This document shows positions 1,888 through 58,251 of a DNA stretch of 64,000 nucleotides, piece by piece. Both the position numbers and the translations under genes were made by a program. A model generated the notes under the pieces. The model did not search any database. It was not told where the DNA came from and saw only the letters and a program-made list of their open reading frames with translations. Source of the stretch: a virus; IMG/VR virus record IMGVR_UViG_3300030090_003995, positions 23,980 through 87,979 of that record, one strand, 5' to 3'. The stretch's first letter is position 1. Each line of letters starts with the position of its first letter.

Positions 1888-2331
1888 ATGAGTTGGTTTG
1901 ATATATTAAAAGCCCAACAAAGGTTATTTAGCGAACCCCCTTTAACAGAAGAAGAGGAAGCAGTTTTAGATGAAGGATTGGAGGAAAATCCATTCTTGAG
2001 ACCAAGGGAAGGTAAAGTCTTAGCAGCGACCGAAGACCATAAAAAGCCTAAAAAATCAAAACAATTAAAACTTCCGGGTGCGCCTATTAGAACAAAAGTT
2101 CCTATATCTGAATTTAGAGATGGTTCTAGTCCAACAGGTGATGATACAAAATTAACCGTTCAACAACAAACAAGACTGGCTCAAAAAGAACCTAGAGGGC
2201 ATTTTAAAGAATTAGCCAATGAAATGACAAGATTGGCATTACGTTCTCAAAATTCTGATGGTCAAAAACAAAAGAAATTATTAGGGCGTATGAGAATGCG
2301 ATTAGAAGAAGAAAATATACCGAGGGCTTAA
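1888..2331 (+). CDS. MSW-ILK leader protein (putative internal virion cargo)
   Basis: Starts MSWFDILK after a GGTGAT RBS. Confidence 0.7.
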   Translation: MSWFDILKAQQRLFSEPPLTEEEEAVLDEGLEENPFLRPREGKVLAATEDHKKPKKSKQLKLPGAPIRTKVPISEFRDGSSPTGDDTKLTVQQQTRLAQKEPRGHFKELANEMTRLALRSQNSDGQKQKKLLGRMRMRLEEENIPRA

Positions 2332-2332
2332 T

Positions 2333-2551
2333 ATGACAAGTAGAGAAGATGTAGCAAAAATTCGTAGGGAACTACAAGAAACTGAGAGAGTGCTAACTTT
2401 AGCAGAACAGAAAAAAACTATCAATAAAAATCATGCACCTGTGCAATTACCTGATAAAAAGACTCATTATAATGAGAGGACTTCATCCAATCAAATTGAT
2501 TATGTTGTTCATTTGCCTAAGAAGCAAAAGCGTAGCGAAAATAAGTGGTGA
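2333..2551 (+). CDS. hypothetical protein (72 aa)
   Basis: ORF track; tightly packed in the operon. Confidence 0.6.
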   Translation: MTSREDVAKIRRELQETERVLTLAEQKKTINKNHAPVQLPDKKTHYNERTSSNQIDYVVHLPKKQKRSENKW

Positions 2552-2556
2552 GTAAA

Positions 2557-5500
2557 ATGACATTACTAAAAGCCTATCTAATGAATAAGCGTGACCCGTT
2601 TACATTAGCGAAGGCTTTCCTTGATGTGCTTAAAGATGAACAAGCATGGAGAGAAGAACAATTAGGTGAGTTAGGTGCAAAATATTTCAGTGATGCGATG
2701 GAGTTTTATGAAGATGAACTTGCTGAAATCAATGGTAAGATTGTAGAAAATAATTCTAAAATTAAAGAGATTAGAACAAGACTTGCCCCTAATTATACTT
2801 TTGAAGATAAAATTGAGTATGAGGGTCCAGATGGTGAAACCTTTATTCGTAGAGAAACTAGAGGTCTTACTGATGAAGAATCTAATTTGGAGCGTTTAGA
2901 ACTAGAAAGTGCTGAATCTCTTAATAATGATTATGCTGAAATAAGGGAGTCTGTCAACGGTCACTTATCTGATTTAACTACACACTATACTAATTTAACA
3001 GGTGAGGAATACGATAGAAGTGATGAAAATAAAATACGTTTGACCTTAAAGGGGTTAAAAATATTAGCAGATAGAATAGATGATTTAGGTGAAATTAAGC
3101 CACCCGATTCTATAAAACAATTGGATGCTAATTTAGAAAATGCTAAGAAACTTTACGAAAGGTCATTAGAAGAATTAAAATCAGATTTACAGGAAAAAAA
3201 TGCTCCCCAAGATATTATTACTAATGCAACTGCTAAATTAAAACGCAAGTTTGATACAAAAATGTCTACATTAGAATCATCAAGAAGTGGTATGTCTAAG
3301 AGTTATGAATCTTTACTATCTCAAAAATATAAACTTGAACAAAGAATTATTAGAGGAAAAAAAGATTTAGAAAGAATGGGTATTGATGTAAAGGAATACG
3401 GCCCGAAATATTCAAAAGAATCAGACTTTAAAAAACCACAGTCTAAACCTGAAACAGCGGAAGAGAAGAAGGCTAGAGAAGAAAAAGAAGAACAGGAAAA
3501 TCTTGAAAGAAGAATAGATTTGAAAAAACAAGCGTTAGTCCGTTTAGCAAAAAGAGCCCTTGAATGGGAAAAACAAGGTTTTATTCCTGGCCCTAAATAC
3601 AAAGCGGGAAGAAGAAAAACTACGGGAAAATTAGATAGAGATTATGCTCGCCCAATTAAAAGTGGAAAATACAAAGGCATTACCCTTAAAGGCGATGAGG
3701 TAGAATTAGATGCAAAAATGACTAAACTGGTAAATGATAGCAATATTGGTGTCAATGAACTTATTAGTCAGGTTAATAAACTTAATCCAAATTTAACTAT
3801 TTCTCTTCCTGAAACACAAAAAACTGTTGACGTAAAGAGGGATATTAGAGGGCTTCCAATAAGAGATAAGGATGGGAATGAAATACCAGTTAAATTTGGT
3901 GAAAATAAACCATACACTCAAGAAGAAATATCTCGCGCTAAGAGTCAAGAACAGAAAGAATATATGGTGCGTATGAATAATTTAGGTATCGGTAAGGGAA
4001 AAAGAAAAGTTAAACAAACCGCTGGTAATTTAAAAAATTGGAAAGAGTGGAGAGAAGAGTTTTCAAGAGTAGTAAGTGATGAAAATCTTCAATTAATGCG
4101 CAACCAATTAAATGATTTCTTTAAAGATTTAGACCCTGAAGTTATGCGTTTATTTGATAAAGATGCACATTCCACTGACACTACTAGATTTGGTTTGGCA
4201 TCAAGCAAAGAAGGTTCAGATGGTAACATTAAATGGACTAAACATGTTAGCAGAAGAAAAACATTACAAATATTAGGTAAGATTTTTTCTGAGGCACTAA
4301 GGACTGATATTTTATCTGATATACAAAAAGTTAATGCAGAGAAAATTCTGAATGCTATTGACGAGGAGTTAGGGATTTCTGGCGGAAAACAAATTAGAGA
4401 ACAACCGGTTGCTGACCAGCAAGTTACTAATATGATGGAATTACTACAAGATTTTTATGATGAGACTCAAATTCTTTTAGAATCTGATACTGATGATGAA
4501 TGGAATGAAGAACCAGTTGAAAGGTTAGAAGATTTAACTGAAGAAGTTGCACAATTATTACAGGATATGGATGAAGAAAATCCTTCACAAGAAGATTATG
4601 TTAATTTATTAATTAGATACCATTTAATAAATGTCACAATTAGGGAATTGGGTAGAGAATTACCAAATCAAGCCTTACAAGCAAAACGTTCTTTAAGAGA
4701 ATATTTAGATTCATTAGAGAATAGATATGAAGATATGTATGGTAATATTGCTGATGATAAGTTACAATCTTTGCAACGTCTTGCTCAAGATTCAACTGAT
4801 TCCGAAGAAGATAAAAGAAAATTAGAACAAGAAATTAGAAGAACATCTACTAAAACTTCTTGGAAACCACCTAAAGGTTATCATGATAAAGATGATACTG
4901 TTAGAAGAAGAGAAAGGGTAAAATTACATAAAGCAGAATTACAGATGCATATTGATATATTTAAACGGTTATCTGAAGGTGGAGAGGTAAAGATAACTAA
5001 ACCTATTAGACACCCTGACCAAACTGATAAAGAATATGCAGAAGCAAAACGTAGGTTTGAACCTAAAGTAATTTCAGGTAAAAAAATTCCTAAAAGGCAA
5101 GGTAATCAAAGACCTCTAAAACAGTTAGCAGAAATGGTAATTCCTAAATTTAAAGTGGATATGGAAAAATCTAGACAAAAGCGATTGTATGGTAAAATTT
5201 TAACTCAAGAACGTATTGATGGTATTAGAAATAATTTGGTTGCAGAATTAGGAAGAGGTGAAGAAGTTGATATTGAGAATTTTGATAGTTTATATTCTTC
5301 AGCGGTAGATATTATAGGGCCAAAATCTTATACTGATAGATATAAACAGGTTAAGACTCTAACAGGTAAAGAATTAGAACAACTTGGTTTAGAGGATGTT
5401 AAAGAAGAGTTTTTAGCAAGAAGAGTTAGAGGTGAAGGTACTGATGACGAAGAATTTATTCCTGATTCTGAAATTAGTGATGCCGATGAATTTGATGCCG

Positions 5501-5937
5501 CTAATACATTAATGGACCAAGCAACTGCTATGGTTATGAATTACAAAGATGACGATGGTAAGATTGTTGAAATACCTGAAGATGCAGCGCCTTATTTAGA
5601 AATAGTAGAACAACGATTTAAACAGGCTAGAGATGAGGCTTTAAAGGTTCAAGCAGAAAGTGAAGATGATGAACTTCCTAAAGAGTTCCGTTCTAAATCT
5701 GGCACAACAATTAATTTTGATGAGTGGTTACAAAATATAGAATCGGCAAAGGCTGAAGCGCAATCTAAGAAGTTAGATGAAAGAAAATATGGTGAAGATA
5801 AAAAGGTTAAGAGAAAACCTAAGAGACCTGTTGTTAAATTACCAGAAACAAGAACAATTGATGAAGAGAGAGAAAGAGGAGAAAATTTGTTAGACCCTTC
5901 AATTCTAAGAAGACCTGAACAGGAGGAAGAAGAATGA
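2557..5937 (+). CDS. large, highly charged coiled-coil protein, possibly an internal head protein
   Basis: About 1126 aa, K/E/D/R-rich and helical; ATG 2557 after GGTGAG; no recognised catalytic motif. Confidence 0.7.
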   Translation: MTLLKAYLMNKRDPFTLAKAFLDVLKDEQAWREEQLGELGAKYFSDAMEFYEDELAEINGKIVENNSKIKEIRTRLAPNYTFEDKIEYEGPDGETFIRRETRGLTDEESNLERLELESAESLNNDYAEIRESVNGHLSDLTTHYTNLTGEEYDRSDENKIRLTLKGLKILADRIDDLGEIKPPDSIKQLDANLENAKKLYERSLEELKSDLQEKNAPQDIITNATAKLKRKFDTKMSTLESSRSGMSKSYESLLSQKYKLEQRIIRGKKDLERMGIDVKEYGPKYSKESDFKKPQSKPETAEEKKAREEKEEQENLERRIDLKKQALVRLAKRALEWEKQGFIPGPKYKAGRRKTTGKLDRDYARPIKSGKYKGITLKGDEVELDAKMTKLVNDSNIGVNELISQVNKLNPNLTISLPETQKTVDVKRDIRGLPIRDKDGNEIPVKFGENKPYTQEEISRAKSQEQKEYMVRMNNLGIGKGKRKVKQTAGNLKNWKEWREEFSRVVSDENLQLMRNQLNDFFKDLDPEVMRLFDKDAHSTDTTRFGLASSKEGSDGNIKWTKHVSRRKTLQILGKIFSEALRTDILSDIQKVNAEKILNAIDEELGISGGKQIREQPVADQQVTNMMELLQDFYDETQILLESDTDDEWNEEPVERLEDLTEEVAQLLQDMDEENPSQEDYVNLLIRYHLINVTIRELGRELPNQALQAKRSLREYLDSLENRYEDMYGNIADDKLQSLQRLAQDSTDSEEDKRKLEQEIRRTSTKTSWKPPKGYHDKDDTVRRRERVKLHKAELQMHIDIFKRLSEGGEVKITKPIRHPDQTDKEYAEAKRRFEPKVISGKKIPKRQGNQRPLKQLAEMVIPKFKVDMEKSRQKRLYGKILTQERIDGIRNNLVAELGRGEEVDIENFDSLYSSAVDIIGPKSYTDRYKQVKTLTGKELEQLGLEDVKEEFLARRVRGEGTDDEEFIPDSEISDADEFDAANTLMDQATAMVMNYKDDDGKIVEIPEDAAPYLEIVEQRFKQARDEALKVQAESEDDELPKEFRSKSGTTINFDEWLQNIESAKAEAQSKKLDERKYGEDKKVKRKPKRPVVKLPETRTIDEERERGENLLDPSILRRPEQEEEE

Positions 5938-6287
5938 GTTGGAAAAAGATATTAAAATTTCAATCTGACGGTTTAGATGAACATAATGTGGATGAACTTC
6001 TTGTTCATCCAATTGAGCGATTAGGTTTCCGATTACAAACGAATGAGTCATATATAGTTGGTGATAATCCAGAATCAGGAGAAGCCGGATGGAATACCGG
6101 ACAGTATTCTTTGGATTTTGCCCACACAACAGGAACGCGATATACTGTAAAAAGGACACATATACGTGCTACCCCCACATCTCCCCAATATTATATTTTT
6201 AGGGGTAATGAGGGAATTGTTGGTAAACCTTTCAATTATATAGAAGTAGTAGATTGGTTTGAACACGAAGCGGAGAGTTTATCATGA
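5934..6287 (+). CDS. MSW-ILK leader protein
   Basis: Starts MSWKKILK; ATGA overlap with the upstream gene. Confidence 0.7.
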   Translation: MSWKKILKFQSDGLDEHNVDELLVHPIERLGFRLQTNESYIVGDNPESGEAGWNTGQYSLDFAHTTGTRYTVKRTHIRATPTSPQYYIFRGNEGIVGKPFNYIEVVDWFEHEAESLS

Positions 6288-6616
6288 CGTGGTTTGAAGT
6301 AATTAAAGAAGATAGTCCGGCTTTGGCTAGTCTATCACAAAAAGAAAAAAAGAAACTCAAAAAGGTTTTGCAAGCAGCCGAACCTTCAGAATACTTTGGT
6401 CAAGACTTTACAAGAATGGGAGAATTGATTGAATTAATGAGAGAATTAGATTTGGTTAAGGGAGATAAAAAAATGCAAAAGAAAATGAAATCTATTTCTG
6501 AGCAAAATGTAGATGTTGTCGCTATGGCTGCTAAATTGCGAAAAGAATATGAAGAAATGTATAGACAACTTCGACAAATTGTATATCCTAAAAGCAAGGG
6601 GTTGAGAAAGAAATGA
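6284..6616 (+). CDS. MSW-ILK leader protein (helical)
   Basis: Starts MTWFEVIK. Confidence 0.7.
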   Translation: MTWFEVIKEDSPALASLSQKEKKKLKKVLQAAEPSEYFGQDFTRMGELIELMRELDLVKGDKKMQKKMKSISEQNVDVVAMAAKLRKEYEEMYRQLRQIVYPKSKGLRKK

Positions 6617-6876
6617 GTTGGGAAAATATAATTAAAATGAGAAGAATTATTCCTGAAGTAGAGGAAGTCATGCCCTATTATAATGGGTTAGATGAATTAC
6701 TCACTATGGTTAAAAAAGATATGGAAGAAGTTGTAAGTTTTATTATGAATGATGATTTAGAAAGGGCCGAAATTAAGTGGGATAAAATGAAAGGAGGCAT
6801 TCTCGATTTAGAAGGAACCTTTACTGGAATTAAAGACGTTAATGCGTTTATTACTAGATTATTAGGTGATGCTTAA
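6613..6876 (+). CDS. MSW-ILK leader protein
   Basis: Starts MSWENIIK. Confidence 0.7.
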   Translation: MSWENIIKMRRIIPEVEEVMPYYNGLDELLTMVKKDMEEVVSFIMNDDLERAEIKWDKMKGGILDLEGTFTGIKDVNAFITRLLGDA

Positions 6877-7022
6877 TGAGTAAAATGGATTTCGCTAAAG
6901 CGAATAAAGAACTTAGACATCATATTATTTTAATGCTTGACCATTTTGATAATCAAGATGAAGAAGGTTGGAACAAACTACTTAAAATTGCAAGATTTGT
7001 GGTGGAGGTAGATTATAAATGA
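6876..7022 (+). CDS. hypothetical protein (48 aa)
   Basis: Manual translation MSKMDFAKANKELRHH...GWNKLLKIARFVVEVDYK*; overlaps both neighbours and fills the gap exactly. Confidence 0.6.
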   Translation: MSKMDFAKANKELRHHIILMLDHFDNQDEEGWNKLLKIARFVVEVDYK

Positions 7023-7264
7023 GCGAAAATAAAGATGAAACGCTAGAAGTTCTGAAATTATTAGTGGATAAAATCCAAAAATTAGAAGAAACTGTCTATA
7101 ACAATGACAACGTATTAATGAAAGCGGGTCTTGTAAAGGTTGATAGTCCAACACCAAGTATGGGCGGTGGAGATGGGGTTATTCCTGATTCTAAGGCTAT
7201 TGCTAAGATGAGTTGGGATGAAATCAATACATTGGTTACTCGATTAGGAGGCGGAACAATATGA
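7019..7264 (+). CDS. small protein with a scaffold-like C-terminal helix
   Basis: N-terminal coiled coil; C-terminal IPDSKAIAKMSWDEINTLVTRL resembles the C-terminus of the protease-scaffold. Confidence 0.65.
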   Translation: MSENKDETLEVLKLLVDKIQKLEETVYNNDNVLMKAGLVKVDSPTPSMGGGDGVIPDSKAIAKMSWDEINTLVTRLGGGTI

Positions 7265-7779
7265 ATACTGAAGAAATCTTGAAAAAGTTAAAAGAGATTC
7301 AAGTCGAGGCGATTAATAATCTACATAGTGATGATAAAGAAAGTCAACTTCAAGTCGCTGATAAAGAAAAATTACCGAATGAAGAACTTGTTGGTGGAGA
7401 AGAAGTTAAGATTAAAAGACCAAAGGCTGAAAATGTTAAAGTTCCTGATAGTTTAAGTCGAACAACACCAATGGCCGGCCCAACAAAATTCAATACGCCT
7501 GAAGAGGTTTATACAAGTGGTGAAAAGAAAAGCATTACAATTGAATCAATCCAAGCACAATTAGACGATTTAAAAAAGGATATGAATGCTGATAGATGGG
7601 GCGGAGAATTAGGTAATTTATTAATGGAGGCTGAATCATATTTAACTGAGCATGAGCAAAACAGGCGAGAAGGTAAAATTAAATATGACCAACAGGATAT
7701 TGATGAATTAAGGATTGAAATTAATAGAAATCCTCCTAGCCCTGGCAATATTAGAAATGTCTTAGCCCGATTTCCGTGA
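7261..7779 (+). CDS. hypothetical head-module protein
   Basis: ORF track; starts MNTEEILK (leader variant). Confidence 0.65.
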   Translation: MNTEEILKKLKEIQVEAINNLHSDDKESQLQVADKEKLPNEELVGGEEVKIKRPKAENVKVPDSLSRTTPMAGPTKFNTPEEVYTSGEKKSITIESIQAQLDDLKKDMNADRWGGELGNLLMEAESYLTEHEQNRREGKIKYDQQDIDELRIEINRNPPSPGNIRNVLARFP

Positions 7780-7784
7780 TTAGT

Positions 7785-10340
7785 ATGCCATTAAGCGGTC
7801 TTAGTTTTAGAAAAGAGAAAAACCCTCTTTCTAGGCGTATTCAACGCCTATTTGAACAGATTAGGGCCGACTATCTATCTGCTAAACAACAACCTAAAGA
7901 ATTCGCTAAAGATTGGGAAAAGGCAGTTGATAAACTAATAAACATTTATTCAGATATTGACGACCTTTCTTCTCAATTAAAAACTGTATTAGAAGAGAAA
8001 GATTTGAATTCTTCTGAAGCGAAGGATGCTACCTCTTCAACTGCCCAAAAAGTGTATAATGCTGTTAAAACTTTAAGATACGACAGTGACTACGTTAGAG
8101 ACCCCTTTGTTAAAAAGTTTGGTAAAGAGGTTCTTGAGAAATTATTAGAGAGTAAAGCCCATCTTGCTCTATTTATCCATTGGTGTCTTAGAAATGACCG
8201 AAATGCACTTCCTAGAGAGTTTTGGGAGGAATACCTGCCCGAAGGTGACAAAATAACTGACGGGTATGAGGGTCTTGACCTACATGAGAAGGCGATAGTA
8301 CCCTTCATTACTGAACATTATGGGGATGGAAAAAATAGTCAAGGTGTTAAAGCAAAAGTTAAGGGGTCTATGGCCTTATTTAAGGATTTATACACACGTT
8401 TCTATTCCAAATCCGAGTGGGCCGAGTTACTTGGCCTCGATATTGAGAAGTCTGAAAAAGATAAAAGCGATATTAACTTCATGGTTCCAAATAAACCAAT
8501 GTATAGGATTTTTGAGATTGATGATATTAAAGAGTTACGCGGTTTTACTGGAGATTGGGTTGTTCAAGAAAAATATGATGGTATGCGAATACAATTACAT
8601 AAAATTGATAATAAGGTGAAAATCTTCTCATTTAATGGTAATGATATTACAGATAAATGTCCAGAACAAGTTAAAATTCTCAAAGAAAAGAAGTTTGGGG
8701 AATGTATCTTAGATGGGGAGTTAATGTTATCAACGAAAGAAAAGCCTCTTCCCCGCGCTCAAGTTATTGCTCATGTATTTAAGAATAAAGAAGTTGATGG
8801 GGAGTTAAAGGTTCATGTTTTTGATATTATGCGCCATAATGACCGTGATTTAGCAGATTCTCCTTTACAAGATAGAATTAACATTTTATTTCAAAATTAT
8901 TCCATCCATTCGGATGAAAAATTAGCGTTCCCATCTAAGAAAGACACGCGAATTGCAGATAGTTTAGAAGATATTCAACGTTATGGTAAAGAAATTATGA
9001 AAATTCCAACATCTGAGGGTGTTGTCATTAAAGATTTAACTTCTACTTACATTAAAGGTGCGAAAAAGAATCCTAAGTGGATAAAATGGAAAAAATTTGT
9101 TGATTTGGACCTTATTGTTTTAGATAAGAAAACAACTAAGTCTAATCTAAATTCTTATACTCTTGGGGCTGGCCCATTAACTATGGAACAGGCTCGCAGT
9201 TTACAATCTGAGAAGATAAATGATAGATATTACTTAAATGTTGGGAAGGCTCTTAATACTAAGATAAATGTTGAAGTTGGTAAAATTGTTCGTGTGACTG
9301 TTGATGAAGTTAAGAAGAATAGAAAGGGCCAATATCGAGTATTTACTGCAAAAGTCATTGAGATTCCTGAAGTCGAACATCCTGATAAATTAATCACTTT
9401 AGAGTTGTTAGCCGGTGAAGGTGAAGTTAAAAATTATAAGGCTAAAGCATTAGAAAAGGGATATTCTATTACCGACGATATACATGGTGAAACAGAAGTT
9501 ATTCTTAAGCATGATTTAGACGGCTTTACAATTTATGGATTTAAAGATAATAACTTAATGTCAAAGAACGCGTTAGTAGATTTAGACCTTGTTAAAGAGC
9601 AAATTTCTGAATTAATAACAAAATATTCTAATCAAATGAAATCATTAATTATGACCATAATTAGAAGAAATGGTAATAAAATGACTTTAGAAGATATTAT
9701 AGAAGAAGGGTTAAGAGATAAGAATTTTAAGAAGATTTATGAAAAACACTATGGTAGTCCTAAAGAATTAGGAAAGGCTATGAAAGATGACAAAATGGAT
9801 GGTATAATTTTATTAGACAATATTCATTTTTCTACAGCAAATGAGAAGGAAGCCGAAAAAGTAGAAGTTGAGACTAACCCTGATGTTATTGTTAAGGAGT
9901 ATAAAACTCCTGAAAAGTATAGAAAAGGTAATTTTAAATTGTATCTTAGAAAAGATGAAAACTTAAATTTAACCTTTCAATTAGGGGAAGAAGTTATTGG
10001 TTGGGAAATTCAAATTGACTCAATTGATAATGTATTTGATTTATTTGGTAAAGCAGGTAAGTACCCTGCTAGGATTCAAGAAACAGTTTCAAAGGAAAAA
10101 CTAATTGATAAAGGTTCTGTTGAGTTAGGCGTACAAAGACATGGTTATCACGAATACATCTTAAAAGGCGAAAAGTTTGATACTAAACTTCATTTAAGAG
10201 TTGTCCCATTAAAGGACCAAAAACAATGGATAGCGTTTTCTAGTTTTGTAAAGGAACCTGTTGAACCCTCCACAGATGATGGTATATGGGATATTAGAGA
10301 GGATGAGAACAAGGATTTGTCCTTTGAAAGTCTTGAATAG
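7785..10340 (+). CDS. multidomain ATP-dependent DNA ligase in the head module (N-terminal helical domain + adenylation/OB domains + degenerate LigD phosphoesterase-like C-terminus)
   Basis: Motif I QEKYDGMR, III ILDGEL, IIIa VFDIM, IV EGVVIK, V WIKWK; C-terminal LIDKGSVE...YILKGEKF...WIAF. Confidence 0.85.
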   Translation: MPLSGLSFRKEKNPLSRRIQRLFEQIRADYLSAKQQPKEFAKDWEKAVDKLINIYSDIDDLSSQLKTVLEEKDLNSSEAKDATSSTAQKVYNAVKTLRYDSDYVRDPFVKKFGKEVLEKLLESKAHLALFIHWCLRNDRNALPREFWEEYLPEGDKITDGYEGLDLHEKAIVPFITEHYGDGKNSQGVKAKVKGSMALFKDLYTRFYSKSEWAELLGLDIEKSEKDKSDINFMVPNKPMYRIFEIDDIKELRGFTGDWVVQEKYDGMRIQLHKIDNKVKIFSFNGNDITDKCPEQVKILKEKKFGECILDGELMLSTKEKPLPRAQVIAHVFKNKEVDGELKVHVFDIMRHNDRDLADSPLQDRINILFQNYSIHSDEKLAFPSKKDTRIADSLEDIQRYGKEIMKIPTSEGVVIKDLTSTYIKGAKKNPKWIKWKKFVDLDLIVLDKKTTKSNLNSYTLGAGPLTMEQARSLQSEKINDRYYLNVGKALNTKINVEVGKIVRVTVDEVKKNRKGQYRVFTAKVIEIPEVEHPDKLITLELLAGEGEVKNYKAKALEKGYSITDDIHGETEVILKHDLDGFTIYGFKDNNLMSKNALVDLDLVKEQISELITKYSNQMKSLIMTIIRRNGNKMTLEDIIEEGLRDKNFKKIYEKHYGSPKELGKAMKDDKMDGIILLDNIHFSTANEKEAEKVEVETNPDVIVKEYKTPEKYRKGNFKLYLRKDENLNLTFQLGEEVIGWEIQIDSIDNVFDLFGKAGKYPARIQETVSKEKLIDKGSVELGVQRHGYHEYILKGEKFDTKLHLRVVPLKDQKQWIAFSSFVKEPVEPSTDDGIWDIREDENKDLSFESLE

Positions 10341-10376: not shown

Positions 10377-11714
10377 ATGGCGAGCGCAACGCTTCAACAA
10401 AGTGCGACAATTAGAACAAATAATCCTTCTGATTTTCAAATAATTAAATCTGATGATTTATACATTGGTGGATATGCTTCTATTGAATTAGTAGATAAGC
10501 AAAACGATTTAATTACATTAGAAGCATTAAATGATGCTGTTAAAAAATTCATGCAAGCACCAAGATACAGAAACGTTATGAATAATCATTCAAATGTTCA
10601 AGTTGGTGAAGTAGTCAAAGAATATCGAGATAAGACAGGAAAATTATGGAAAACTGATGTTGATGATGTTGGTTTTTTTGTTGTAATAAAATTAAGAGAT
10701 GATATTGAGAAGGCTAAAGAAGTTAGTCGGGACATTAGAAAAGGTACTCTTCGTTCTTTCAGCATTGGGGGTCAAGCACTCGAAAAGCGTAAACGAGAGA
10801 ATGATGAATTAGGAAAGTTTAATGAAATTAGTAAATTGGAATTGCATGAAGTAACTATTTGTGAAAAAGGCATTAATCCAGAAGCAAAATTTGATATTCT
10901 AAAACAAGACAGTGGTGATAACATGACCGAAGTTACAAAAGCGTTAGAAGAACTAAACTCTCTCTTAAAAGAAATTAGAGGAGAAAGTGTATCAAAAGCC
11001 CCTAATCCAAAATCGGAAGAGGGATTTGAAATGCAAGAATTACCGGAAGGTGAAGAAAAAATGACAAGTGAATATTTAGACACTGAAGAAGAAACTGAAG
11101 AATCACCTGAAATGCTAGAAATGGCAGAAGGTGAAGAAGAGGAAATGATGGAATTAGCCTCAAGCGAAGAAGATGACCCTGAAAAGGAATTAAAGAGCAA
11201 AACAAGCCATACCCATGAAACACAATTAGTGGATGAGGCTGGTCTAGAAGTTGTAGTGGGTGGACAACCTTCAACAAAACATGGACAGCGTAAAGATATG
11301 GGGATTCCTGCCGGAACTGAAACCAAAAAGTCCATTTATGGTGGAGATACACCAACACTCGATTTGAGTCCTGAGAATCTTGAAAAGGCTTATGCTGAAT
11401 TTAAGGCTGAGCAAATGGAAAAAATGGCTTACAATGATATTAAGTCGTCTTTCCAAGCACGATTCGATGCTGAAGTTGCAGCAAAAGCAGATTCAATCGA
11501 GAAGGCAAACTATGACCCACGAAGTGAGGTCAACGAACTTAAAAAGCAGTTTAGTGAGTTAATTGACACACTAAAGGGTGAGAAGGAAAATGTTATCCGA
11601 AAGCAACAAGAGGCTGTTGATAACCTAAACATTCCTTCAGGTGATGATTTGGCTAAGATGGATTGGAATGAAGTCCATTTGGCTATGGCTCGACTAGAGC
11701 GCAATTTCCGCTGA
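10377..11714 (+). CDS. HK97-family prohead protease fused to an acidic/coiled-coil scaffold
   Basis: IGGYAS..VDKQND, MNNHS (His), SFSIGG (Ser), LHEVTI...NPEA; immediately upstream of the capsid gene. Confidence 0.9.
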   Translation: MASATLQQSATIRTNNPSDFQIIKSDDLYIGGYASIELVDKQNDLITLEALNDAVKKFMQAPRYRNVMNNHSNVQVGEVVKEYRDKTGKLWKTDVDDVGFFVVIKLRDDIEKAKEVSRDIRKGTLRSFSIGGQALEKRKRENDELGKFNEISKLELHEVTICEKGINPEAKFDILKQDSGDNMTEVTKALEELNSLLKEIRGESVSKAPNPKSEEGFEMQELPEGEEKMTSEYLDTEEETEESPEMLEMAEGEEEEMMELASSEEDDPEKELKSKTSHTHETQLVDEAGLEVVVGGQPSTKHGQRKDMGIPAGTETKKSIYGGDTPTLDLSPENLEKAYAEFKAEQMEKMAYNDIKSSFQARFDAEVAAKADSIEKANYDPRSEVNELKKQFSELIDTLKGEKENVIRKQQEAVDNLNIPSGDDLAKMDWNEVHLAMARLERNFR

Positions 11715-11742: not shown

Positions 11743-13107
11743 ATGGTAAAATATATTAACACTATCGCTGACCTTGAACAAGCCACTTACGGTACGTTTG
11801 GTGGAAATAGCGACATTCTGAAAAGTGGTGGGTCTTTACTCGGACTTCACACAGCACACGATACAAACGCAACAAACGCATTTGTTGGAACTGCGGCTTC
11901 AAACCTCAGTAACTTGTATAACGTAATTTATGGACAGAAAGTTTGGTCAATGCTCAATCAAGAGATTAACCCACTTTCTATTCTTCCTAAGCGACCATAC
12001 ACTTCAAGCGGTTGGCGCGTATTAATTGACCGACCTGCTGGTGGAAGTGCTGCGGCTTTTGCGATTGGAACGCAAGATATTACTGCAACTCCAACTGCTG
12101 ATATGAGCGCACCTTCAGCCGATAGTATCGGTGGTGTGAAAGAAAACCACGCTTTGAATAGTGTTGGACTTTCTGAACTATCTCCAGAATATGCGACCTT
12201 ATTTATGAGTCCTAAGACTGTTGCGCATATGTTCGGTTATTCCGAAGTTGCAGCAGAAATGGCGAAAATTGATGATGGTATCGGTGATATTCGTAACATT
12301 GTTCGTGAAGATATGGGTAAATTCCACGCTGAGGTTCAGTCCAAAATGCTTGTAATGCCTCTTGAAAATTACGACCACTCAAGTTATGCAGATATTGAAT
12401 TAAACTACACTTCATTATTGAAGATTGTAGCAAGTAGTCAAGAAATGGAGGCTATGATTGATGCAGGTATGCACGGTTCAATGGGTGGTTCTTCATCAAC
12501 AGGCGGTTTAGTAGACCAAATGAGTTATTTGTATGGAAACAATTCTCGTGATTTGGTTGCAAATGCTTACAATGAATCATATATGGATGCTTATGTCAAT
12601 TATGGTAGTGGATATGCTGCTGGCGATGTTCGAGCATTAACTCTAACTTTGCTTAATACTACTTTGCAGAACCTCCGAACAAACGGTGGTACGCCAAAGT
12701 GTATCTTAACTGGATATGATACAATTCAAGCAATTGCTGATTTGTTACAGTCCCAAGAACGATTTATGGAGCGAAAAGAAATTGTTCCTACACATAATGG
12801 TGTTCGTGGTGTAAAGGGCCGAGAAGTCGGTTTCCGAGTAGCGACATATTTCGATATTCCGCTAATTCCATGTAAAGATATGGCAAGCACAGGTGAAGCA
12901 ACAGGTAAACTAAGCGATTTATTGTTCTTAGACACTGACCATCTTTGGATGGCTGTAATGAAACCAACTCAATACTTTGAGGATGGTATTAATTCTGGAA
13001 ACCCATTCGGTGTTGGCGCACTTGGAAACAAGGCCATGTTCCGAACAATGGGCGAAACTGGCTGTACTTTCTTTAAGGGACAAGGCAAGATTACTAACGT
13101 GAACTGA
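11743..13107 (+). CDS. major capsid protein (HK97 fold)
   Basis: Position after the protease; 454 aa; YGQKVWSMLNQE, IPLIP, LLFLDTD, QGKITN patterns of archaeal tailed-virus MCPs; AGGTGA RBS. Confidence 0.85.
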   Translation: MVKYINTIADLEQATYGTFGGNSDILKSGGSLLGLHTAHDTNATNAFVGTAASNLSNLYNVIYGQKVWSMLNQEINPLSILPKRPYTSSGWRVLIDRPAGGSAAAFAIGTQDITATPTADMSAPSADSIGGVKENHALNSVGLSELSPEYATLFMSPKTVAHMFGYSEVAAEMAKIDDGIGDIRNIVREDMGKFHAEVQSKMLVMPLENYDHSSYADIELNYTSLLKIVASSQEMEAMIDAGMHGSMGGSSSTGGLVDQMSYLYGNNSRDLVANAYNESYMDAYVNYGSGYAAGDVRALTLTLLNTTLQNLRTNGGTPKCILTGYDTIQAIADLLQSQERFMERKEIVPTHNGVRGVKGREVGFRVATYFDIPLIPCKDMASTGEATGKLSDLLFLDTDHLWMAVMKPTQYFEDGINSGNPFGVGALGNKAMFRTMGETGCTFFKGQGKITNVN

Positions 13108-13934: not shown

Positions 13935-13960
13935 TGGCCCCAATTAAATAGGTGATAAAA

Positions 13961-14305
13961 ATGAGTCATGCAGGATGTAGAAGTAGTGGTTTAATTACCG
14001 CAGATACGTTAGTTAATACAGGTCAATGTAAGTTAATTAGTTTTCATGGTTATAATAATCATGCGACCGATGCTTGCACAATTAAAATTTATGATAATAC
14101 TGCCGCAAGCAATCCACAAATAGCAGAAATTTATTTGCCCGGAAAATTGTCATCTGTTATGGATGATACATCAGGTGGCGACCAAGAGGCTAGGACCGCA
14201 ACGGCGGTTAATTTTGAATGTGATTTTCATGCTATTCTTTGTAGAAATGGAATTTATGTTGATGTAACAGGTGGAACACCTCGAATATTTATTGAGTTTG
14301 CATAA
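13961..14305 (+). CDS. small beta-rich putative virion protein
   Basis: AGGTGAT RBS; alternating beta-strand pattern (IKIYDN, NGIYVDVTG). Confidence 0.55.
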   Translation: MSHAGCRSSGLITADTLVNTGQCKLISFHGYNNHATDACTIKIYDNTAASNPQIAEIYLPGKLSSVMDDTSGGDQEARTATAVNFECDFHAILCRNGIYVDVTGGTPRIFIEFA

Positions 14306-14314
14306 GGTGGTTAA

Positions 14315-14689
14315 ATGGCAGCAATTAATAAAGATACTAGACTAGTTATGACGATTTTATTCGTCGGTGCAGTAAGTGGAATGAATGTGTATTTCTATGC
14401 CAATTATGGCGCAGAATTACCTTGGACACCATTAAGTCATGCTGTGTTATTTTCTCTAATTACGATTGGGTTTGTAATGGGAATTAAAGCAGTATTTGAC
14501 TTAATTATGAACGACAGGATGGAATTATGGTTACTTGATAGAAAAATTAATATGTATTGGGAAAAGCGCAAGAGAGAAGAAACTCAACGAAATAAAATTG
14601 TTGATTCTATGCGCCAATATAATATGAACCCGTATATGCAAAATAACCAAGAAGTGCCAGCAGTTTTTCTTGAAGGTATTGAGCCTTGA
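14315..14689 (+). CDS. two-TM membrane protein (holin-like topology)
   Basis: Two hydrophobic helices followed by a charged coiled-coil tail. Confidence 0.65.
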   Translation: MAAINKDTRLVMTILFVGAVSGMNVYFYANYGAELPWTPLSHAVLFSLITIGFVMGIKAVFDLIMNDRMELWLLDRKINMYWEKRKREETQRNKIVDSMRQYNMNPYMQNNQEVPAVFLEGIEP

Positions 14690-14701
14690 TGGGGAATAGA
14701 T

Positions 14702-14914
14702 GTGCTTTTAGACTTATTTGGTTTAGATGAAACGTCTGTTGCTTATGATATGACAAGAGCGCATTCTGCTGATATATTATTTCTAAAAATGAGAGCAATT
14801 ATGTGGTGTATAACAACAGGTGTTGGGGCATTATTAATTGGTAATATATGTGGAGTATTTGGAATTAATTTCTTTGGTATGACTTGGGAATGGTTAACAG
14901 GGTTGTGGCATTAA
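14702..14914 (+). CDS. small membrane protein
   Basis: Hydrophobic Gly-rich segment followed by a Trp-rich amphipathic C-terminus. Confidence 0.6.
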   Translation: MLLDLFGLDETSVAYDMTRAHSADILFLKMRAIMWCITTGVGALLIGNICGVFGINFFGMTWEWLTGLWH

Positions 14915-15270
14915 TGAGTTGGCAAGATATTTTAAAGAATGATGAAAGAAACCCTAAATTTAGGGAAGGAGATGAATTGGAGGGCTATTGGATTAGTGAT
15001 TATATTAGTGATTATATTTTTGAGGGAAATAAATTACGCTCGGGTAATAGTTGGTGGGAAGAAGCCGCTGGTGAAGATTACTTGGATAAGTTATTAAAAG
15101 AATTCATAGAAAGTGGTGAAGAATATACTAAAGAAGCAGTAGATAAATGGTTGGAGAAAAATATAAGTCAAGAAGAATTTAATAGAATGGCTAAAGAAAT
15201 TAGAGATGATGATTACGGCCCAGACTATGAAGATTTTGGACCGGTTGAAGGATATAAAGATTATTATTAG
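14914..15270 (+). CDS. MSW-ILK leader protein (acidic)
   Basis: Starts MSWQDILK at ATG 14914 (TAATG overlap). Confidence 0.7.
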   Translation: MSWQDILKNDERNPKFREGDELEGYWISDYISDYIFEGNKLRSGNSWWEEAAGEDYLDKLLKEFIESGEEYTKEAVDKWLEKNISQEEFNRMAKEIRDDDYGPDYEDFGPVEGYKDYY

Positions 15271-15279
15271 GTGATTAAA

Positions 15280-15453
15280 ATGAGTTGGTTTGATACATTA
15301 AAAATGCACTGTGGAACTAAACAGAAAGTAGATGATGATTTTGAAAAAACAAAAGGAATTGCTAGACAGTTACGGCCTGATTTCAAACCTGATTTTAAAG
15401 AAAAAGATACCAAAAAGTACGGAATTAAACATCAAATACGTAGAGGTCAATAG
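15280..15453 (+). CDS. MSW-ILK leader protein (basic)
   Basis: Starts MSWFDTLK after taggtgattaaa. Confidence 0.65.
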   Translation: MSWFDTLKMHCGTKQKVDDDFEKTKGIARQLRPDFKPDFKEKDTKKYGIKHQIRRGQ

Positions 15454-15463
15454 GTGATTTCAT

Positions 15464-16132
15464 GTGTCAGTTGTTGCAGGTTTCGCAATTGTTTGTTTAG
15501 AAGCGGCAGGTTCATTTTGGAAAAAATTTCACGCAATTAATTTTGGAGTCTATGGTGCATCAAGAGTTGGAAAAACTACTTTACATAGACAATTACGAAC
15601 AAGAGGAGAAGTACCTGAAATCAAAAAAAGAACGGTCGGTTTAGAAAGAGCAACAAGAAAACTGGTTAAAATTGATAAAGATATGCACACAATCAAAGCC
15701 GCAGATATTGGAGGAGAATCAGCATATTGGAATCTTTGGAAAAAAGATATGAGAAAAAGAAAACCAAAACACGTTATATTCATGATAGACCATCGGCATT
15801 TAGAAAGTAATGTAAATATGGATAACCAATTAGCATGGCAGTATTTTGTTGATTTAATTTGTGACCCATATTGGAGAGATGGAAAGAAAAAGAAAAGAAA
15901 AAAGGATAAAGATTATCCAAAGTCTATTGGTATATGGGCAAATAAATACGATTTATGGGGGAAAGAAAATGGATTCAACGACATTTCAAAACACCCTATT
16001 TTTGAACCATTCGCGTATGGAATGCAACGACTTAATGAAATTGGAATACCTTGTTTCAAATATGTCGTTAGTGCAAAATCCGACCCTGAAATGGTATATC
16101 GCGGAGTAATGACAATGTGTGATGATTATTAA
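15464..16132 (+). CDS. Arf/Sar1-like small GTPase (Ras superfamily)
   Basis: G1 GASRVGKT, G2 RTVG, G3 DIGGE, G4 NKYD, G5 SAK; hydrophobic N-terminal extension. Confidence 0.85.
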   Translation: MSVVAGFAIVCLEAAGSFWKKFHAINFGVYGASRVGKTTLHRQLRTRGEVPEIKKRTVGLERATRKLVKIDKDMHTIKAADIGGESAYWNLWKKDMRKRKPKHVIFMIDHRHLESNVNMDNQLAWQYFVDLICDPYWRDGKKKKRKKDKDYPKSIGIWANKYDLWGKENGFNDISKHPIFEPFAYGMQRLNEIGIPCFKYVVSAKSDPEMVYRGVMTMCDDY

Positions 16133-16142
16133 GGTGATTAAA

Positions 16143-16406
16143 ATGAGTTGGCAAGATATATTAAAGGATGATGCAAAATGGGGCAGAATCCATCAACATC
16201 TAAAAGATAAATTAGAAGAATATAAACGTGACTACCCGTCTGCAAACACTTTAAGTTTTAATAAATTTGACGAAATTTATGAAGATATTATACAGGCGGC
16301 TATTGAGGATGAACAACGTCTACAAAAATTGGCTAAATATGCAGGATTTAGTCATTTTAATCCTCAACATCAAGGAAAAAGTGATGTGGTGGCGTTTTAC
16401 TATTAG
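16143..16406 (+). CDS. MSW-ILK leader protein
   Basis: Starts MSWQDILK after taaggtgattaaa. Confidence 0.7.
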   Translation: MSWQDILKDDAKWGRIHQHLKDKLEEYKRDYPSANTLSFNKFDEIYEDIIQAAIEDEQRLQKLAKYAGFSHFNPQHQGKSDVVAFYY

Positions 16407-16415
16407 GTGATTAAT

Positions 16416-16607
16416 ATGAGTTGGGATGATATATTAAAATTAGAAACTCCCCTACAAAAACCATTGAATGAAGCGTTAAGATTGTTAGAACCAACCACGC
16501 GCTATGAGATGGATGAAAGCAAGCAACAATACCAAGATTTAAGGAATGCTATTACTAAATTTTTAGAATGGGAACAAACGTTTCTACTGAGCCAAAGAAA
16601 TAGGTGA
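16416..16607 (+). CDS. MSW-ILK leader protein
   Basis: Starts MSWDDILK after taggtgattaat. Confidence 0.7.
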   Translation: MSWDDILKLETPLQKPLNEALRLLEPTTRYEMDESKQQYQDLRNAITKFLEWEQTFLLSQRNR

Positions 16608-16612
16608 TTAAA

Positions 16613-17170
16613 ATGGGTTGGGAAGATATTCTAAAATTAAGATACAAGCCACCGAAAAAATTTGGATACGAAAGTGATGCAGATTTCAAGAGAAGATTGG
16701 CAGCATACGACCGAAAATATCAAAGTGACAAAAGTAGAGGTGTTTTAGGAACAAGAGAAGAAATTGAAGCCGATGAGCAACGTAAGAAAGATAAATTTGC
16801 TCAAAATCAAAAAGAATTAGAGGAATCATCAATTGATTGGAATAAAGCACTAAACACTATGGTTTTGCTAGAAAAAGAAGTAAAACGTAGATTTGAACCG
16901 AGAGGTAATGACCCCGGAGAAAGGATGTTACAAAATGTATTTATAAATGCGGCTAATAAACCAATGCGAGAATTAGCAGATATTTACCTCGCTCAACCTA
17001 AAGGTTCAGAAGGCGGAATAAAAGAATGGAATAGAGCAAGAAGGTATCTTGCTCAAGTTTTACTTGACCCTCGATATGTTGGTCTGTTAAATAATTTAAG
17101 ATTAGCGCGTGATGATGAGTCATTAGAAAGGTTTCTTGAAAATAATGGGTTTGGAGATGGTTCTGAATGA
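16613..17170 (+). CDS. MSW-ILK leader protein
   Basis: Starts MGWEDILK after taggtgattaaa. Confidence 0.7.
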   Translation: MGWEDILKLRYKPPKKFGYESDADFKRRLAAYDRKYQSDKSRGVLGTREEIEADEQRKKDKFAQNQKELEESSIDWNKALNTMVLLEKEVKRRFEPRGNDPGERMLQNVFINAANKPMRELADIYLAQPKGSEGGIKEWNRARRYLAQVLLDPRYVGLLNNLRLARDDESLERFLENNGFGDGSE

Positions 17171-17823: not shown

Positions 17824-18463
17824 TACATTAAACTCGGCACTGGCGGATTCTCAGAATCAAAGTTTTAAGAGCATGAACAATCTCTTAACTTTGCAAGAGA
17901 ACCATGTAGAAGAATTTTTCCAATATCACGGGCCTGAATTTATGAATGCCCTTGAAAAGTTAATGGAAGATGTTGTTCAAAGAGTAGTATCAAATATGTT
18001 AGCAAGTTTGGAATTTGTTTTAAACCCAGCATCAAACCATATTACATTACAAGAAAAATGTCTTTCAGAATATCAAAAAATTACTCAAGAAAACATTGAC
18101 TTAGATATTCAAACTATTCTTGCTACGGCAGTAAATAGTGAAGTTATTCATCAACGTAAGATGGCTAAACAACAATATCTTGAAAGTCAAGGATTTAGCC
18201 CGCAAACAACTGGACAACAATATACAGTTGCTCAAGGTGTTGGAATGGGCGCAACATCCGGTGGAATGGCCGGAGGTGTAATGGGTATAAATCAAGGAAT
18301 GCAGAGTGGTTATCCAATTCCGCCTAATGGTTACGACCAAATGAATAATCCTTATTGGATTGACCCACAAACAGGCCAAATGTCATATACCCCGCCTAGT
18401 GGTGGAATTGGCTTAGGCCAAAAAATGGCTAAAGCAGCAGCATGGGCAAAGTGGCTAGTGTGA
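17810..18463 (+). CDS. coiled-coil protein with G/M/Q/P low-complexity tail and amphipathic C-terminus
   Basis: Helical N-terminal half; GMGATSGGMAGGVMG; ends KMAKAAAWAKWLV. Confidence 0.65.
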   Translation: MVRSSTLNSALADSQNQSFKSMNNLLTLQENHVEEFFQYHGPEFMNALEKLMEDVVQRVVSNMLASLEFVLNPASNHITLQEKCLSEYQKITQENIDLDIQTILATAVNSEVIHQRKMAKQQYLESQGFSPQTTGQQYTVAQGVGMGATSGGMAGGVMGINQGMQSGYPIPPNGYDQMNNPYWIDPQTGQMSYTPPSGGIGLGQKMAKAAAWAKWLV

Positions 18464-18477
18464 GGGGGTAAAATTGG

Positions 18478-20247: not shown

Positions 20248-20249
20248 TA

Positions 20250-21344
20250 ATGGTTAAGTTATCATCACCATCTGACTATACGGCAGTAAATCCTAACTAT
20301 GCTATTGGGCAAGGGTATTACACTAACGAAGATAAAATAGCAGATTTACTACAAATACCATCTTTCTCCGCCACGACCAATCCATCTTACGACCAAGTGG
20401 GCGACATTATTAAGGATGTAGAAGACGAAATAGATGAAAAAACCGGAATGTCGTTTAGACCAATCATTTACGCGAATGAGATGCACAATTTTCGTAGTCC
20501 AACGGGCGGGTCTTTGCGAAAGTGGCCCTCATGGTGGTCAGACTACGTTGGTTTTTGCCAACTAAACCACAGACATATCCGCAAAATGATTAGAATAGAA
20601 GTTTGGCAGGGAAATAGGTGGACAGACCTTTGTTCGGCAACTGCAAAGGTTAGCGTGTCTAATGACCAAGTTGGTTCTAGCGGTTCTATTACACTAACAT
20701 TACCTAATAACGTAACATTCGTTTTAAATAAAGGAACGACAAATAGCCAATACAATAATGCCTATGGTGCTAAAACTATTGCTCAAGAAATTTGTCATTT
20801 AATAAATGAAACCTTTCCTTCAATAACTGCTAGATTTACAGGTGCTACTGCTTCTAAATCTTTAGTGGGTTCAGATGGAACTAATGTTTCTGATTTCTTT
20901 TATGCTACTGTAAATACAGAAGATGAAACTGAAGTTATAATTTCTTCATTATTACCCGGCGATGATGGGTCACAATGTTCTATTGCAGTAACAGGTTCGG
21001 GTTTAACTAAAAGCGATTTTACAGATAATGAAGAAATGAAACGTCTTGGTACATGGTGGAAAGTAGATGAAGAAGGCCGTATTTTCTTTAGAACCAAATT
21101 TCCTTATATGGAAAAAAATTCAATTCGTATGACTTATATTGCAGGTAATCCTAGAGTTCCCGGAATTATTTCTCAAGCAGCAACAAAAATGTCAGCGATG
21201 GAAATTTTACGGCATGATGACCAAACAGTGTTAATTGCAGAATCAGGTTCACAAATTGATATTAAAACTAAATACGACTTGTTAAAACAAGAAGCCGCAG
21301 AATTATTGAAACTTACAAGAGAAACTATCTTTTTGATTGAGTGA
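20250..21344 (+). CDS. putative head-tail adaptor with an inserted domain
   Basis: N-terminal YT...IADLL / IKDVEDEIDEKTG and C-terminal IRMTYIAG..VPGIISQAA pattern of connector proteins; lies between head and tail genes. Confidence 0.6.
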   Translation: MVKLSSPSDYTAVNPNYAIGQGYYTNEDKIADLLQIPSFSATTNPSYDQVGDIIKDVEDEIDEKTGMSFRPIIYANEMHNFRSPTGGSLRKWPSWWSDYVGFCQLNHRHIRKMIRIEVWQGNRWTDLCSATAKVSVSNDQVGSSGSITLTLPNNVTFVLNKGTTNSQYNNAYGAKTIAQEICHLINETFPSITARFTGATASKSLVGSDGTNVSDFFYATVNTEDETEVIISSLLPGDDGSQCSIAVTGSGLTKSDFTDNEEMKRLGTWWKVDEEGRIFFRTKFPYMEKNSIRMTYIAGNPRVPGIISQAATKMSAMEILRHDDQTVLIAESGSQIDIKTKYDLLKQEAAELLKLTRETIFLIE

Positions 21345-21349
21345 TTAAT

Positions 21350-21754
21350 ATGTCATGGACTAATATTCTAAAAAATGAGTCTCATTTTATTTGGAATGCA
21401 GATATATTTTCTTGGTCTGATAAGCACAAAGAGTGGCTTGAAAGTTTAGATTGGGGTCAAATTAGACAATACAAAACAGGATTTCCAATTTGGCAGATAG
21501 AAAAACACTTCAATTCTCAAATTACTGACTTAAAGGGAATTATGGATAAGGCATGGGAAGCCCTTTCAGAAAATCTTGAAGATAAAAAAGAGTTACAGCA
21601 ATTAAGTGATAGTTTAGGTAATCAATATCAAGAGATGATAACAGGGATTCTTAATCATGCTAATGATGCATTTAGACAAATAGCAGGAATTCAATATGAT
21701 TTGGCAAGTCAAGATGAAGCAACAGGAGCAGTTAAACTAAAGTGGGTGGAATAA
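21350..21754 (+). CDS. MSW-ILK leader protein
   Basis: Starts MSWTNILK. Confidence 0.7.
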   Translation: MSWTNILKNESHFIWNADIFSWSDKHKEWLESLDWGQIRQYKTGFPIWQIEKHFNSQITDLKGIMDKAWEALSENLEDKKELQQLSDSLGNQYQEMITGILNHANDAFRQIAGIQYDLASQDEATGAVKLKWVE

Positions 21755-22032
21755 TGACGTGGGATACTGTTCTTAAAGTTAGAAGAAAAATAAATATGCC
21801 TCATTTAAAAAGAATTGTAGACCATATTTTACCAAACATGGTTGAAGATGAATTTGCGTTATCAGATTTAGCAAAAATGGTTACAACGACTTATTTAGAA
21901 TATAATCCTAATACTAAACGGGCGTTAAATATATCCTCTATTTTAAGTCAAATGTTACAAAATAGAGGATATGAGCAGTTTTATAAATATTCTAAGGGTC
22001 AACGTTTAACTTATTATAGGAAAGTGCAATAA
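21754..22032 (+). CDS. MSW-ILK leader protein (possible winged helix)
   Basis: Starts MTWDTVLK; three helices followed by a beta-hairpin pattern. Confidence 0.65.
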   Translation: MTWDTVLKVRRKINMPHLKRIVDHILPNMVEDEFALSDLAKMVTTTYLEYNPNTKRALNISSILSQMLQNRGYEQFYKYSKGQRLTYYRKVQ

Positions 22033-58249: not shown

Positions 58250-58251
58250 AA

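Follow-up and report, generated by a model that had tools for sequence, protein, structure and literature searches.

The window analysed here, a 64,000-nucleotide stretch comprising bases 23980-87979 of one 87,979-bp virus record (IMGVR_UViG_3300030090_003995), raises the question of why a series of apparently unrelated genes should begin with the same eight residues, M[STG]Wxx[IVT][LI]K (hereafter the tag, with the remainder of each protein called the body). We propose that the tag is probably a two-part capsid-targeting propeptide, in which a scaffold docking motif is joined to a site for the prohead protease and which would be removed after Lys8. Positions refer to the window unless the genome is named.

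A six-frame scan of the window returned exactly eleven starts that fit the tag pattern, all on the + strand, and the open reading frames (ORFs) that they head encode 57-185 aa each. The first (MSWFDILK, 147 aa, 1888..2331) lies directly 3' of the portal gene (240-1883), and its body family has two members among the 81 genomes and loci compared. Three others are found at 5934..6287 (MSWKKILK, 117 aa, whose body is a singleton), 6284..6616 (MTWFEVIK, 110 aa, basic and all-helical) and 6613..6876 (MSWENIIK, 87 aa). The remaining seven lie at 14914..15270 (MSWQDILK, 118 aa, acidic, with an isoelectric point (pI) of 4.2), 15280..15453 (MSWFDTLK, 57 aa, basic), 16143..16406 (MSWQDILK, 87 aa), 16416..16607 (MSWDDILK, 63 aa), 16613..17170 (MGWEDILK, 185 aa), 21350..21754 (MSWTNILK, with Ser encoded by TCA, 134 aa) and 21754..22032 (MTWDTVLK, 92 aa), which closes the series ahead of the tail tube gene at 22851. 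The corresponding degenerate DNA pattern gave 11 matches against 0.12 expected from 100 dinucleotide-preserving shuffles, none of which contained more than one match. The scan and the shuffle test together bear out a preliminary description of this DNA, which had listed eleven ORFs with a common eight-residue leader. A Shine-Dalgarno-like GGTGAT or GGAGG was present 5-12 nt upstream of 10 or 11 of the 11 starts, indicating that translation truly begins at the ATG of the tag. In addition, 13 further tagged ORFs were found in the 24 kb upstream of the window, bringing the number in the genome to 24. These upstream ORFs include register variants, MWxxVLK, MTNWNDILK and MEEWFNTLK, in which Trp is shifted by one residue either way, and some of them are large (209, 345, 457 and 458 aa).

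The tagged genes are confined to one part of the genome. Tags head 24 of the 51 + strand ORFs at genome 7.4-46.3 kb, whereas they are found on none of the 11 ORFs of the tail module and none of the 38 minus-strand ORFs (Fisher p = 4e-9), in agreement with the confinement to the late structural strand that had been described. The core structural proteins, namely the portal, neck, GTPase-like and tube proteins, have no tag. IMG/VR holds more than 598 relatives of this virus, many of them on records of 86-98 kb, and our comparison sample consisted of the genome and 80 related loci (L001-L080) drawn from them. In five relatives that are 92-100% complete, 41 of 42 pattern matches were located on the strand that carries the capsid gene, and a reversed-pattern control gave none. 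Across the whole sample we found 145 tagged ORFs, 139 of them unique, and all on the capsid-gene strand. A logo of 121 unique tags showed Lys at position 8 in 113 and Arg in one. In this logo and in the alignments, conservation falls from near-invariant to background exactly at residue 8, so that the abrupt end of similarity after Lys8 noted earlier is also upheld.

What follows the tag differs from gene to gene. When the 24 tag-stripped bodies of the genome were compared pairwise, the best blastp E value was 0.013, obtained in a tiny database, and phmmer returned no pair at E<=1. These tagged proteins range over 47-458 aa, pI 4.2-10.5 and 0-10 Cys. The 145 tagged ORFs of the sample fall into 83 body families, 58 of which are singletons; core head genes form families of 20-123 members, whereas families of tagged genes have 1-2. 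Descent of all tagged proteins from one old paralogous family, diverged beyond recognition except at the N-terminus, would accommodate the many bodies that are small and probably helical, and distant common folds are invisible to sequence methods. Such descent is nevertheless highly improbable in view of the spread in size, charge and Cys content, the lack of any significant blastp or phmmer pair, the 83 families and a drop in conservation that falls exactly at residue 8, unlike normal divergence. By these comparisons, the bodies appear to be unrelated rather than paralogous, as had been claimed, and the modular reading of one short tag on many bodies of fast turnover is likewise consistent with the sequence evidence. 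Strand confinement and body turnover are seen among relatives as well, in the 41 of 42 matches and the 83 families, respectively.

Tagged genes occupy a few variable slots at fixed places, which lie between the portal gene and a conserved family of 72-79-aa proteins (F12), between the large variable protein and the mini-scaffold, between the mini-scaffold and the ligase, around the GTPase-like gene, before the tail genes and upstream of the terminase gene. Only the body family of the ORF at 6284, with 37 members, is widely kept across relatives. In an AlphaFold2 (AF2) model of this family (predicted local distance difference test (pLDDT) score 80), residues 3-8 make up a short helix apart from the rest, pLDDT is below 50 at residues 1-5, and comparison of the model with the PDB gave no fold match at E<=0.001. 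In two relatives (L074:4395-4937 and L021:3541-4083), a body of this type has about 70 extra Cys-rich residues (CDECG...CESC) after the tag, and a second Lys-ending sequence, TLEK↓AD, is kept at the old junction of tag and body (arrows here and below mark the putative cut). From their sequences these proteins look like a fusion of two tagged units. A deep homology search with the bodies of the 185-aa, 345-aa and 457-aa proteins found 6, 4 and 9 relatives, respectively, none of them named. The inspected full-length relatives of these three bodies retain the tag, some at 26-35% identity. The 185-aa body has its 6 homologues among 5.8 billion proteins, and the four that were inspected, down to 43% identity, are all tagged; taken together, homologues at 26-49% identity retain the tag.

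The conserved unit could lie in the nucleic acid, either as a translation-initiation or regulator site on late mRNAs or as a recombination junction at which cassettes are swapped. Ser2 of the tag is encoded by AGT in 73 of 76 cases, compared with 54% of second-codon Ser in genes that lack the tag and 24% of Ser within genes, and the position-2 variants ACT, AAT and GGT are each one step from AGT. Moreover, a stop-GGTGATTAAA-ATG junction is common to several tagged genes, and the tagged genes act as cassettes in their variable slots. Against this, the synonymous codons of Ile6, Leu7 and Lys8 occur at background frequencies, the W-xx-phi-L-K spacing is kept although its position relative to the ATG differs by 1-2 residues between tags, and the peptide motifs are also found internally in the scaffold, protease and capsid proteins, as described below. 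The upstream GGTGATTAAA is a generic strong ribosome-binding site that also precedes untagged genes, namely those of the capsid and tail tube proteins. We therefore consider a DNA or RNA unit very unlikely. Since codon usage at positions 6-8 is at background and register-shifted variants exist, the sequences point to selection on the peptide. The preliminary description had based the same view on the lone TCA codon for Ser at 21350, an argument that is weak when AGT is found in 73 of 76 tags. A shared DNA ancestry of the tags suits their spread by recombination at the 5' end, and shared 5' ends can promote cassette exchange, as in the ip loci of T-even phages, which is compatible with a capsid-targeting peptide. 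Among untagged genes, too, AGT is the most frequent second codon (51 of 377), and a general preference for A at +4 is suggested for these viruses.

The first part of the tag has a counterpart on the scaffold. The window encodes a prohead serine protease of the S78 type fused to an acidic scaffold (10377..11714, + strand, assigned by Pfam and PHROG) and an 81-aa coiled-coil mini-scaffold (7019..7264, + strand), which falls in the cluster of the protease-scaffold family and which nearly all relatives encode. The C-terminus of the mini-scaffold (7208-7261) reads MSWDEINTLVTRL... and has the first six residues of the tag at its C-terminal helix. The protease-scaffold protein has a docking-type motif, MDWNEVHLAMARLE, at its own C-terminus (11658-11711), and such a C-terminal motif was found in 63 of 70 protease-scaffold proteins. 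The consensus at the C-termini of the scaffold family is (A/S)K-M[SDE]W[DGSN][DEQ][IV][HN]xL, and M.W..[IVL] occurs within the last 32 residues of 109 of 117 family members; the LK of the tag is not part of the motif. When a position-specific scoring matrix (PSSM) of tag positions 1-6 was used, 84 of the 100 top internal matches were scaffold C-termini. With a PSSM of the whole tag, 8 sites among 275,174 internal positions of all proteins scored above 14 bits. Scaffold-family C-termini account for 6 of them, and the remaining 2 appear to be miscalled tag starts. By this measure the resemblance between tag and scaffold is specific. One short motif is thus found on the C-terminus of the scaffold and on a second protein, as in scaffold mimicry.

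The second part of the tag recurs where a head protease would be expected to cut. The protease domain was identified by Pfam Peptidase_S78 (38 bits, cutoff 21) and by the PHROG head maturation protease (2e-18), and a PDB sequence search with the domain gave nothing meaningful. Two candidate cut sites lie within the protease-scaffold protein, FQIIK↓S at 10434-10448 and FDILK↓Q at 10890-10904. In 22 distinct relatives, the borders of the protease domain are marked by FxILK↓S before it and by an invariant NPEAKFDILK↓Q/E at its end. Correspondingly, a PSSM built from positions 4-8 of the tags placed 85 of its 100 top internal matches at the border of the S78 protease domain. The major capsid protein, of the HK97 class (11743..13107, + strand; Pfam SU10_MCP, PHROG major head protein), begins with 27 residues (11743-11823) that end in SDILK↓SGG, and these residues are the probable propeptide with its cut site. 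In 80 of 80 relatives the capsid protein has [ILV][LI]K and, immediately after it, [SAGQ][SAG]G at residues 24-30, while the length of the preceding sequence varies, and K27 is invariant in the alignment. By their position and conservation, the [IVL][LI]K sites are putative maturation cut sites. An AF2 model of the capsid protein, built with 30 close relatives, had a mean pLDDT of 39 and was unusable for placing Lys27. A complex prediction that paired the capsid protein with residues 1-40 of a tagged protein, run without controls, scored 0.00 and counts neither way. In the halovirus HVTV-1, the nearest cultured relative examined, the protease domain of a protease-scaffold fusion (L083:9085-10998) ends in AKFGVVSK↓A (MNQKAKFGVVSK↓A), which resembles NPEAKFDILK↓Q, and its head module contains no MSW-type tags. 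The Lys-ending protease border may, judging from these sequences, be older than the tag system.

A Lys-ending opening is also seen on the large variable protein of 1130 aa that follows the portal gene (2545..5937, + strand). Its probable start at 2557 gives MTLLK↓A, a variant of the tag that lacks Trp, and a second such site, FLDVLK↓D, is found at 2617-2634. In 27 relatives the proteins in this slot are very divergent, and all open with xLLK↓A, SFMDILRK or FFTILK.

Because the tag joins both elements, the scaffold docking motif and the protease site, we favour the two-part propeptide. The (M)SWx[DE][IV] half would copy the C-terminal motif of the scaffold, so that tagged proteins dock at the site of the scaffold in the procapsid. 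The best candidate for this site is the HK97-type capsid protein, on its inner face or its N-arm; the portal and the scaffold core are less likely. The [IVT][LI]K half would be the recognition site of the S78 protease, which would cut after Lys8 and, at the same step, trim the capsid protein after Lys27 and free itself from the scaffold. The freed bodies would then stay in the head with the DNA, and some of them may be delivered to the host with the genome.

The tag could instead do one job only, serving either as an uncut docking handle with ILK as its hook or as a propeptide that is removed by the protease and has no part in head targeting. The scaffold of phage 80alpha and CpmB bind the capsid protein through a helix and a RIIK hook (PMC5644958), and by this analogy ILK could serve as a hook for binding rather than as a site of cleavage; the two halves are also separable, as the scaffold motif without LK shows. 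However, the halves are nearly always joined in the tags, ILK-type motifs stand exactly at the expected maturation cuts, namely the capsid N-terminus and the borders of the protease domain, and a preference of 113 to 1 for K over R is more in keeping with a Lys-specific protease than with a hydrophobic hook. A single job for the tag is accordingly judged unlikely. Recognition of the leader by some other factor, such as a modifying enzyme (an N-acetyltransferase or an enzyme acting by the logic of ribosomally synthesised and post-translationally modified peptides), the thermosome-type chaperonin of the virus or a host system, would be in line with a GNAT acetyltransferase gene that adjoins the terminase gene and with a Cpn60/TCP-1 chaperonin encoded at 56687-58291. 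It would leave unexplained why both tag halves recur in the protease-scaffold, why the Lys motif is found at the capsid N-terminus and why tags are placed on the head side only, and we regard it as quite improbable. The GNAT protein is rejected as an obligatory partner of the tag, being absent from two of the five near-complete relatives, which carry 8 and 12 tags. No radical-SAM match was obtained among the proteins scanned, a subset of the genes, and no all-gene search for other enzyme partners was made.

Several observations weigh against the two-part propeptide. Widely different residues come next after Lys8 (K, E, A, N, R, L, S and D), while at the sites in the capsid protein and at the N-terminal side of the protease domain the next residue is S, A or G, so that a loose specificity at P1' would be required of the protease. 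Of the tagged genes, 13 are found 5' of the terminase gene and thus well away from the core head genes, and 24 cargo species with 3,561 aa in total are many for one capsid. The AGT codon in 73 of 76 tags indicates that the tags share DNA ancestry or a constraint of initiation context, and the possibility that ILK acts as a hook, raised above, counts in the same direction. Docking, cleavage and retention of the tagged proteins in the virion are, moreover, steps that we infer from sequence. On balance, the capsid-targeting function that the preliminary description had assigned to the tag is partly supported, by the modularity of the tagged proteins, their confinement to the head side and the links to the protease and scaffold motifs.

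The nature of the bodies was examined by several searches. No membrane-like segment was found in any of the 139 unique tagged proteins (19-residue window, Kyte-Doolittle mean >1.6). The tag, with 8 amphipathic residues, has no hydrophobic core of at least 10 residues after a charged N-region, as Sec, Tat and class III signal peptides do. Pfam gave nothing above its cutoffs for 21 of the 24 tagged proteins of the genome, and for 60 tagged proteins of relatives it gave single matches only (DUF5754, PAP2, SHOCT, GvpG and B-box). PHROGs assigned four families, each of unknown function, among all 24 tagged proteins, and the ESM Atlas had no match for the two largest. None of the bodies received a function from these fold, family, atlas and homology searches. 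The bodies, small, soluble, strongly acidic or basic and variable, fit accessory internal proteins. Two tagged proteins encoded just before the portal gene (genome 23355-24052; L082:9355-10052) have 10 and 6 Cys and 31% Lys plus Arg; one of them matches DUF5754 weakly, and a tagged protein of a relative matches it at 3e-11. These Cys-rich basic proteins could be internal proteins that condense DNA. Delivery into the host and a role in countering defence or in host takeover may be proposed, more tentatively, from the analogy with T4 and P1 and from the charge and turnover of the bodies. It is conceivable, though we put it forward tentatively, that the tag is a portable address by which a large and changing repertoire of proteins, up to about 24 per genome and at least 83 families, is loaded into the capsid and delivered with the DNA.

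The surrounding genome has the organisation of a tailed virus. On the + strand, the terminase gene lies upstream of the window, and in the head module an 854-aa protein with an ATP-dependent ligase domain (7776-10340) is encoded directly 5' of the protease gene. Its ligase domain is complete (Pfam 1e-31), its N-terminus has a conserved xSG[VL]SFEK and its family has 67 members in relatives; a second ligase, of the normal three-domain type, is encoded at 54113-55702. Between the head and neck genes, within 14315-16132, a 222-aa protein shows weak matches to Ras/Roc/Arf-type GTPases, all under the Pfam cutoffs, and belongs to a family of 57. Its gene lies 3' of those for two small membrane proteins and has a tagged gene on each side. 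The neck genes are followed by the tail tube gene (22851-24389, + strand). Genes on the minus strand encode a split family-B polymerase, RFC, an ATP-dependent ligase, a thermosome-type chaperonin and TFB. The polymerase (44785-47475) consists of two ORFs with an 84-aa ORF between them, the chaperonin at 56687-58291 matches Cpn60_TCP1 at 2e-43, and a TFB-like transcription factor is encoded at 60335-61315. The first 7.4 kb of the record (genome 1-7400, L081) contain sparse short ORFs in either orientation, and a clear array of genes is not seen ahead of the first tagged gene, at 7470. In a phage collection, the capsid protein matched only capsid proteins of haloviruses and methanogen viruses, at 25-31% identity. 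A halovirus-like head module together with a near-complete archaeal-type replication module matches the description of magroviruses (PMC5434244). The genome thus appears to be magrovirus-like, that is, a tailed virus whose putative hosts are Marine Group II (Poseidoniales) archaea.

In surface oceans, these viruses rank among the most abundant, as do their hosts. Both are uncultured, and for most of the viral genes no function has been assigned. Should the tag be a capsid address, a functional class, virion-internal and probably delivered, would be provided for a quarter of the genes of this genome and for many orphan families, and the tag would be a minimal peptide for loading proteins into HK97-type shells. 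It would also be the first system of capsid targeting to be described for an archaeal virus, extending the loading of T4 internal proteins to archaeal viruses with an HK97-type protease. The tagged proteins would then represent a pre-made library of effectors for an arms race with some of the most abundant archaea of the ocean, and the tag a marker by which such effectors can be found in metagenomes. The origin of the tag seems traceable, in its sequence, to the scaffold motif and the protease site, by a possible route in which the docking motif of the scaffold is copied and joined to the protease site. Term searches of the magrovirus papers and the wider literature returned no passage on a shared N-terminal motif.

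Peptides that bring proteins to a capsid are known from several systems. In tailed phages, the coat protein is bound by the C-terminal helix of the scaffold. The helix and hook of the 80alpha scaffold, a short amphipathic motif at its C-terminus, lie on the N-arm of the capsid protein, and CpmB of SaPI1 copies this motif and uses the same site (PMC5644958). Likewise, the scaffold, the 81-aa mini-scaffold and the tags described here share MSWxDI, and the RIIK hook of 80alpha resembles ILK. In 80alpha and CpmB, however, the motif is C-terminal on both proteins and serves the control of capsid size, whereas here an N-terminal copy is found on dozens of proteins. The HK97 gp4 protease is reported to have a C-terminal targeting tail (Duda et al. 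2013). In phage P1, the Dar proteins are packaged anti-restriction cargo, and DarB has an N-terminal capsid localisation signal that was mapped to within about 30 residues and that takes a reporter into the capsid (PMC9024508). DarB and HK97 gp4 are similar to the present case in that terminal peptides suffice to bring proteins, including reporters, into HK97-type capsids; in them, however, the signal is on a single protein and is not common to many, and that of DarB has neither a shared consensus nor a protease site. The cargo-loading peptides of encapsulins are short and terminal, bind the interior of a shell with the HK97 fold and load unrelated cargo. Encapsulins differ in having no portal, terminase, protease processing or DNA, and their peptides are usually C-terminal and kept, while the tags described here belong to a complete head module of a tailed virus.

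The capsid-targeting sequence (CTS) of phage T4, which is on IPI, IPII, IPIII and Alt and is removed by the prohead protease gp21, is likewise a short N-terminal peptide that is the sole feature common to diverse, fast-evolving proteins. The T4 peptide ends in the motif that gp21 cleaves, and the tag ends in a putative cleavage motif of the S78 protease; in both cases the genes are found in variable loci of the late region. The T4 CTS has about 10 residues and ends in Glu, whereas the tag is unrelated in sequence, has 8 residues and ends in Lys. Furthermore, the protease here is of the S78 type (HK97-type; Pfam Peptidase_S78 / XkdF-type) and not of the gp21 type, and the putative host belongs to the archaeal domain. 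A copy of a C-terminal scaffold motif, such as the tag contains, is not described for T4, and 24 genes are tagged in an 88-kb genome as compared with a handful in T4. The internal proteins of T-even phages form a diverse set that counters host defence and shares only the CTS, which encapsidates them into the scaffolding core (PMC3012670). According to Mullaney and Black, as cited in PMC9024508, the CTS of T4 also targets foreign proteins. We think it rather probable that the tag works like the T4 CTS, to which it is not homologous. The principle is thus known from T4, and it is new for archaeal viruses and for a protease of the S78 type, at an unusual scale.

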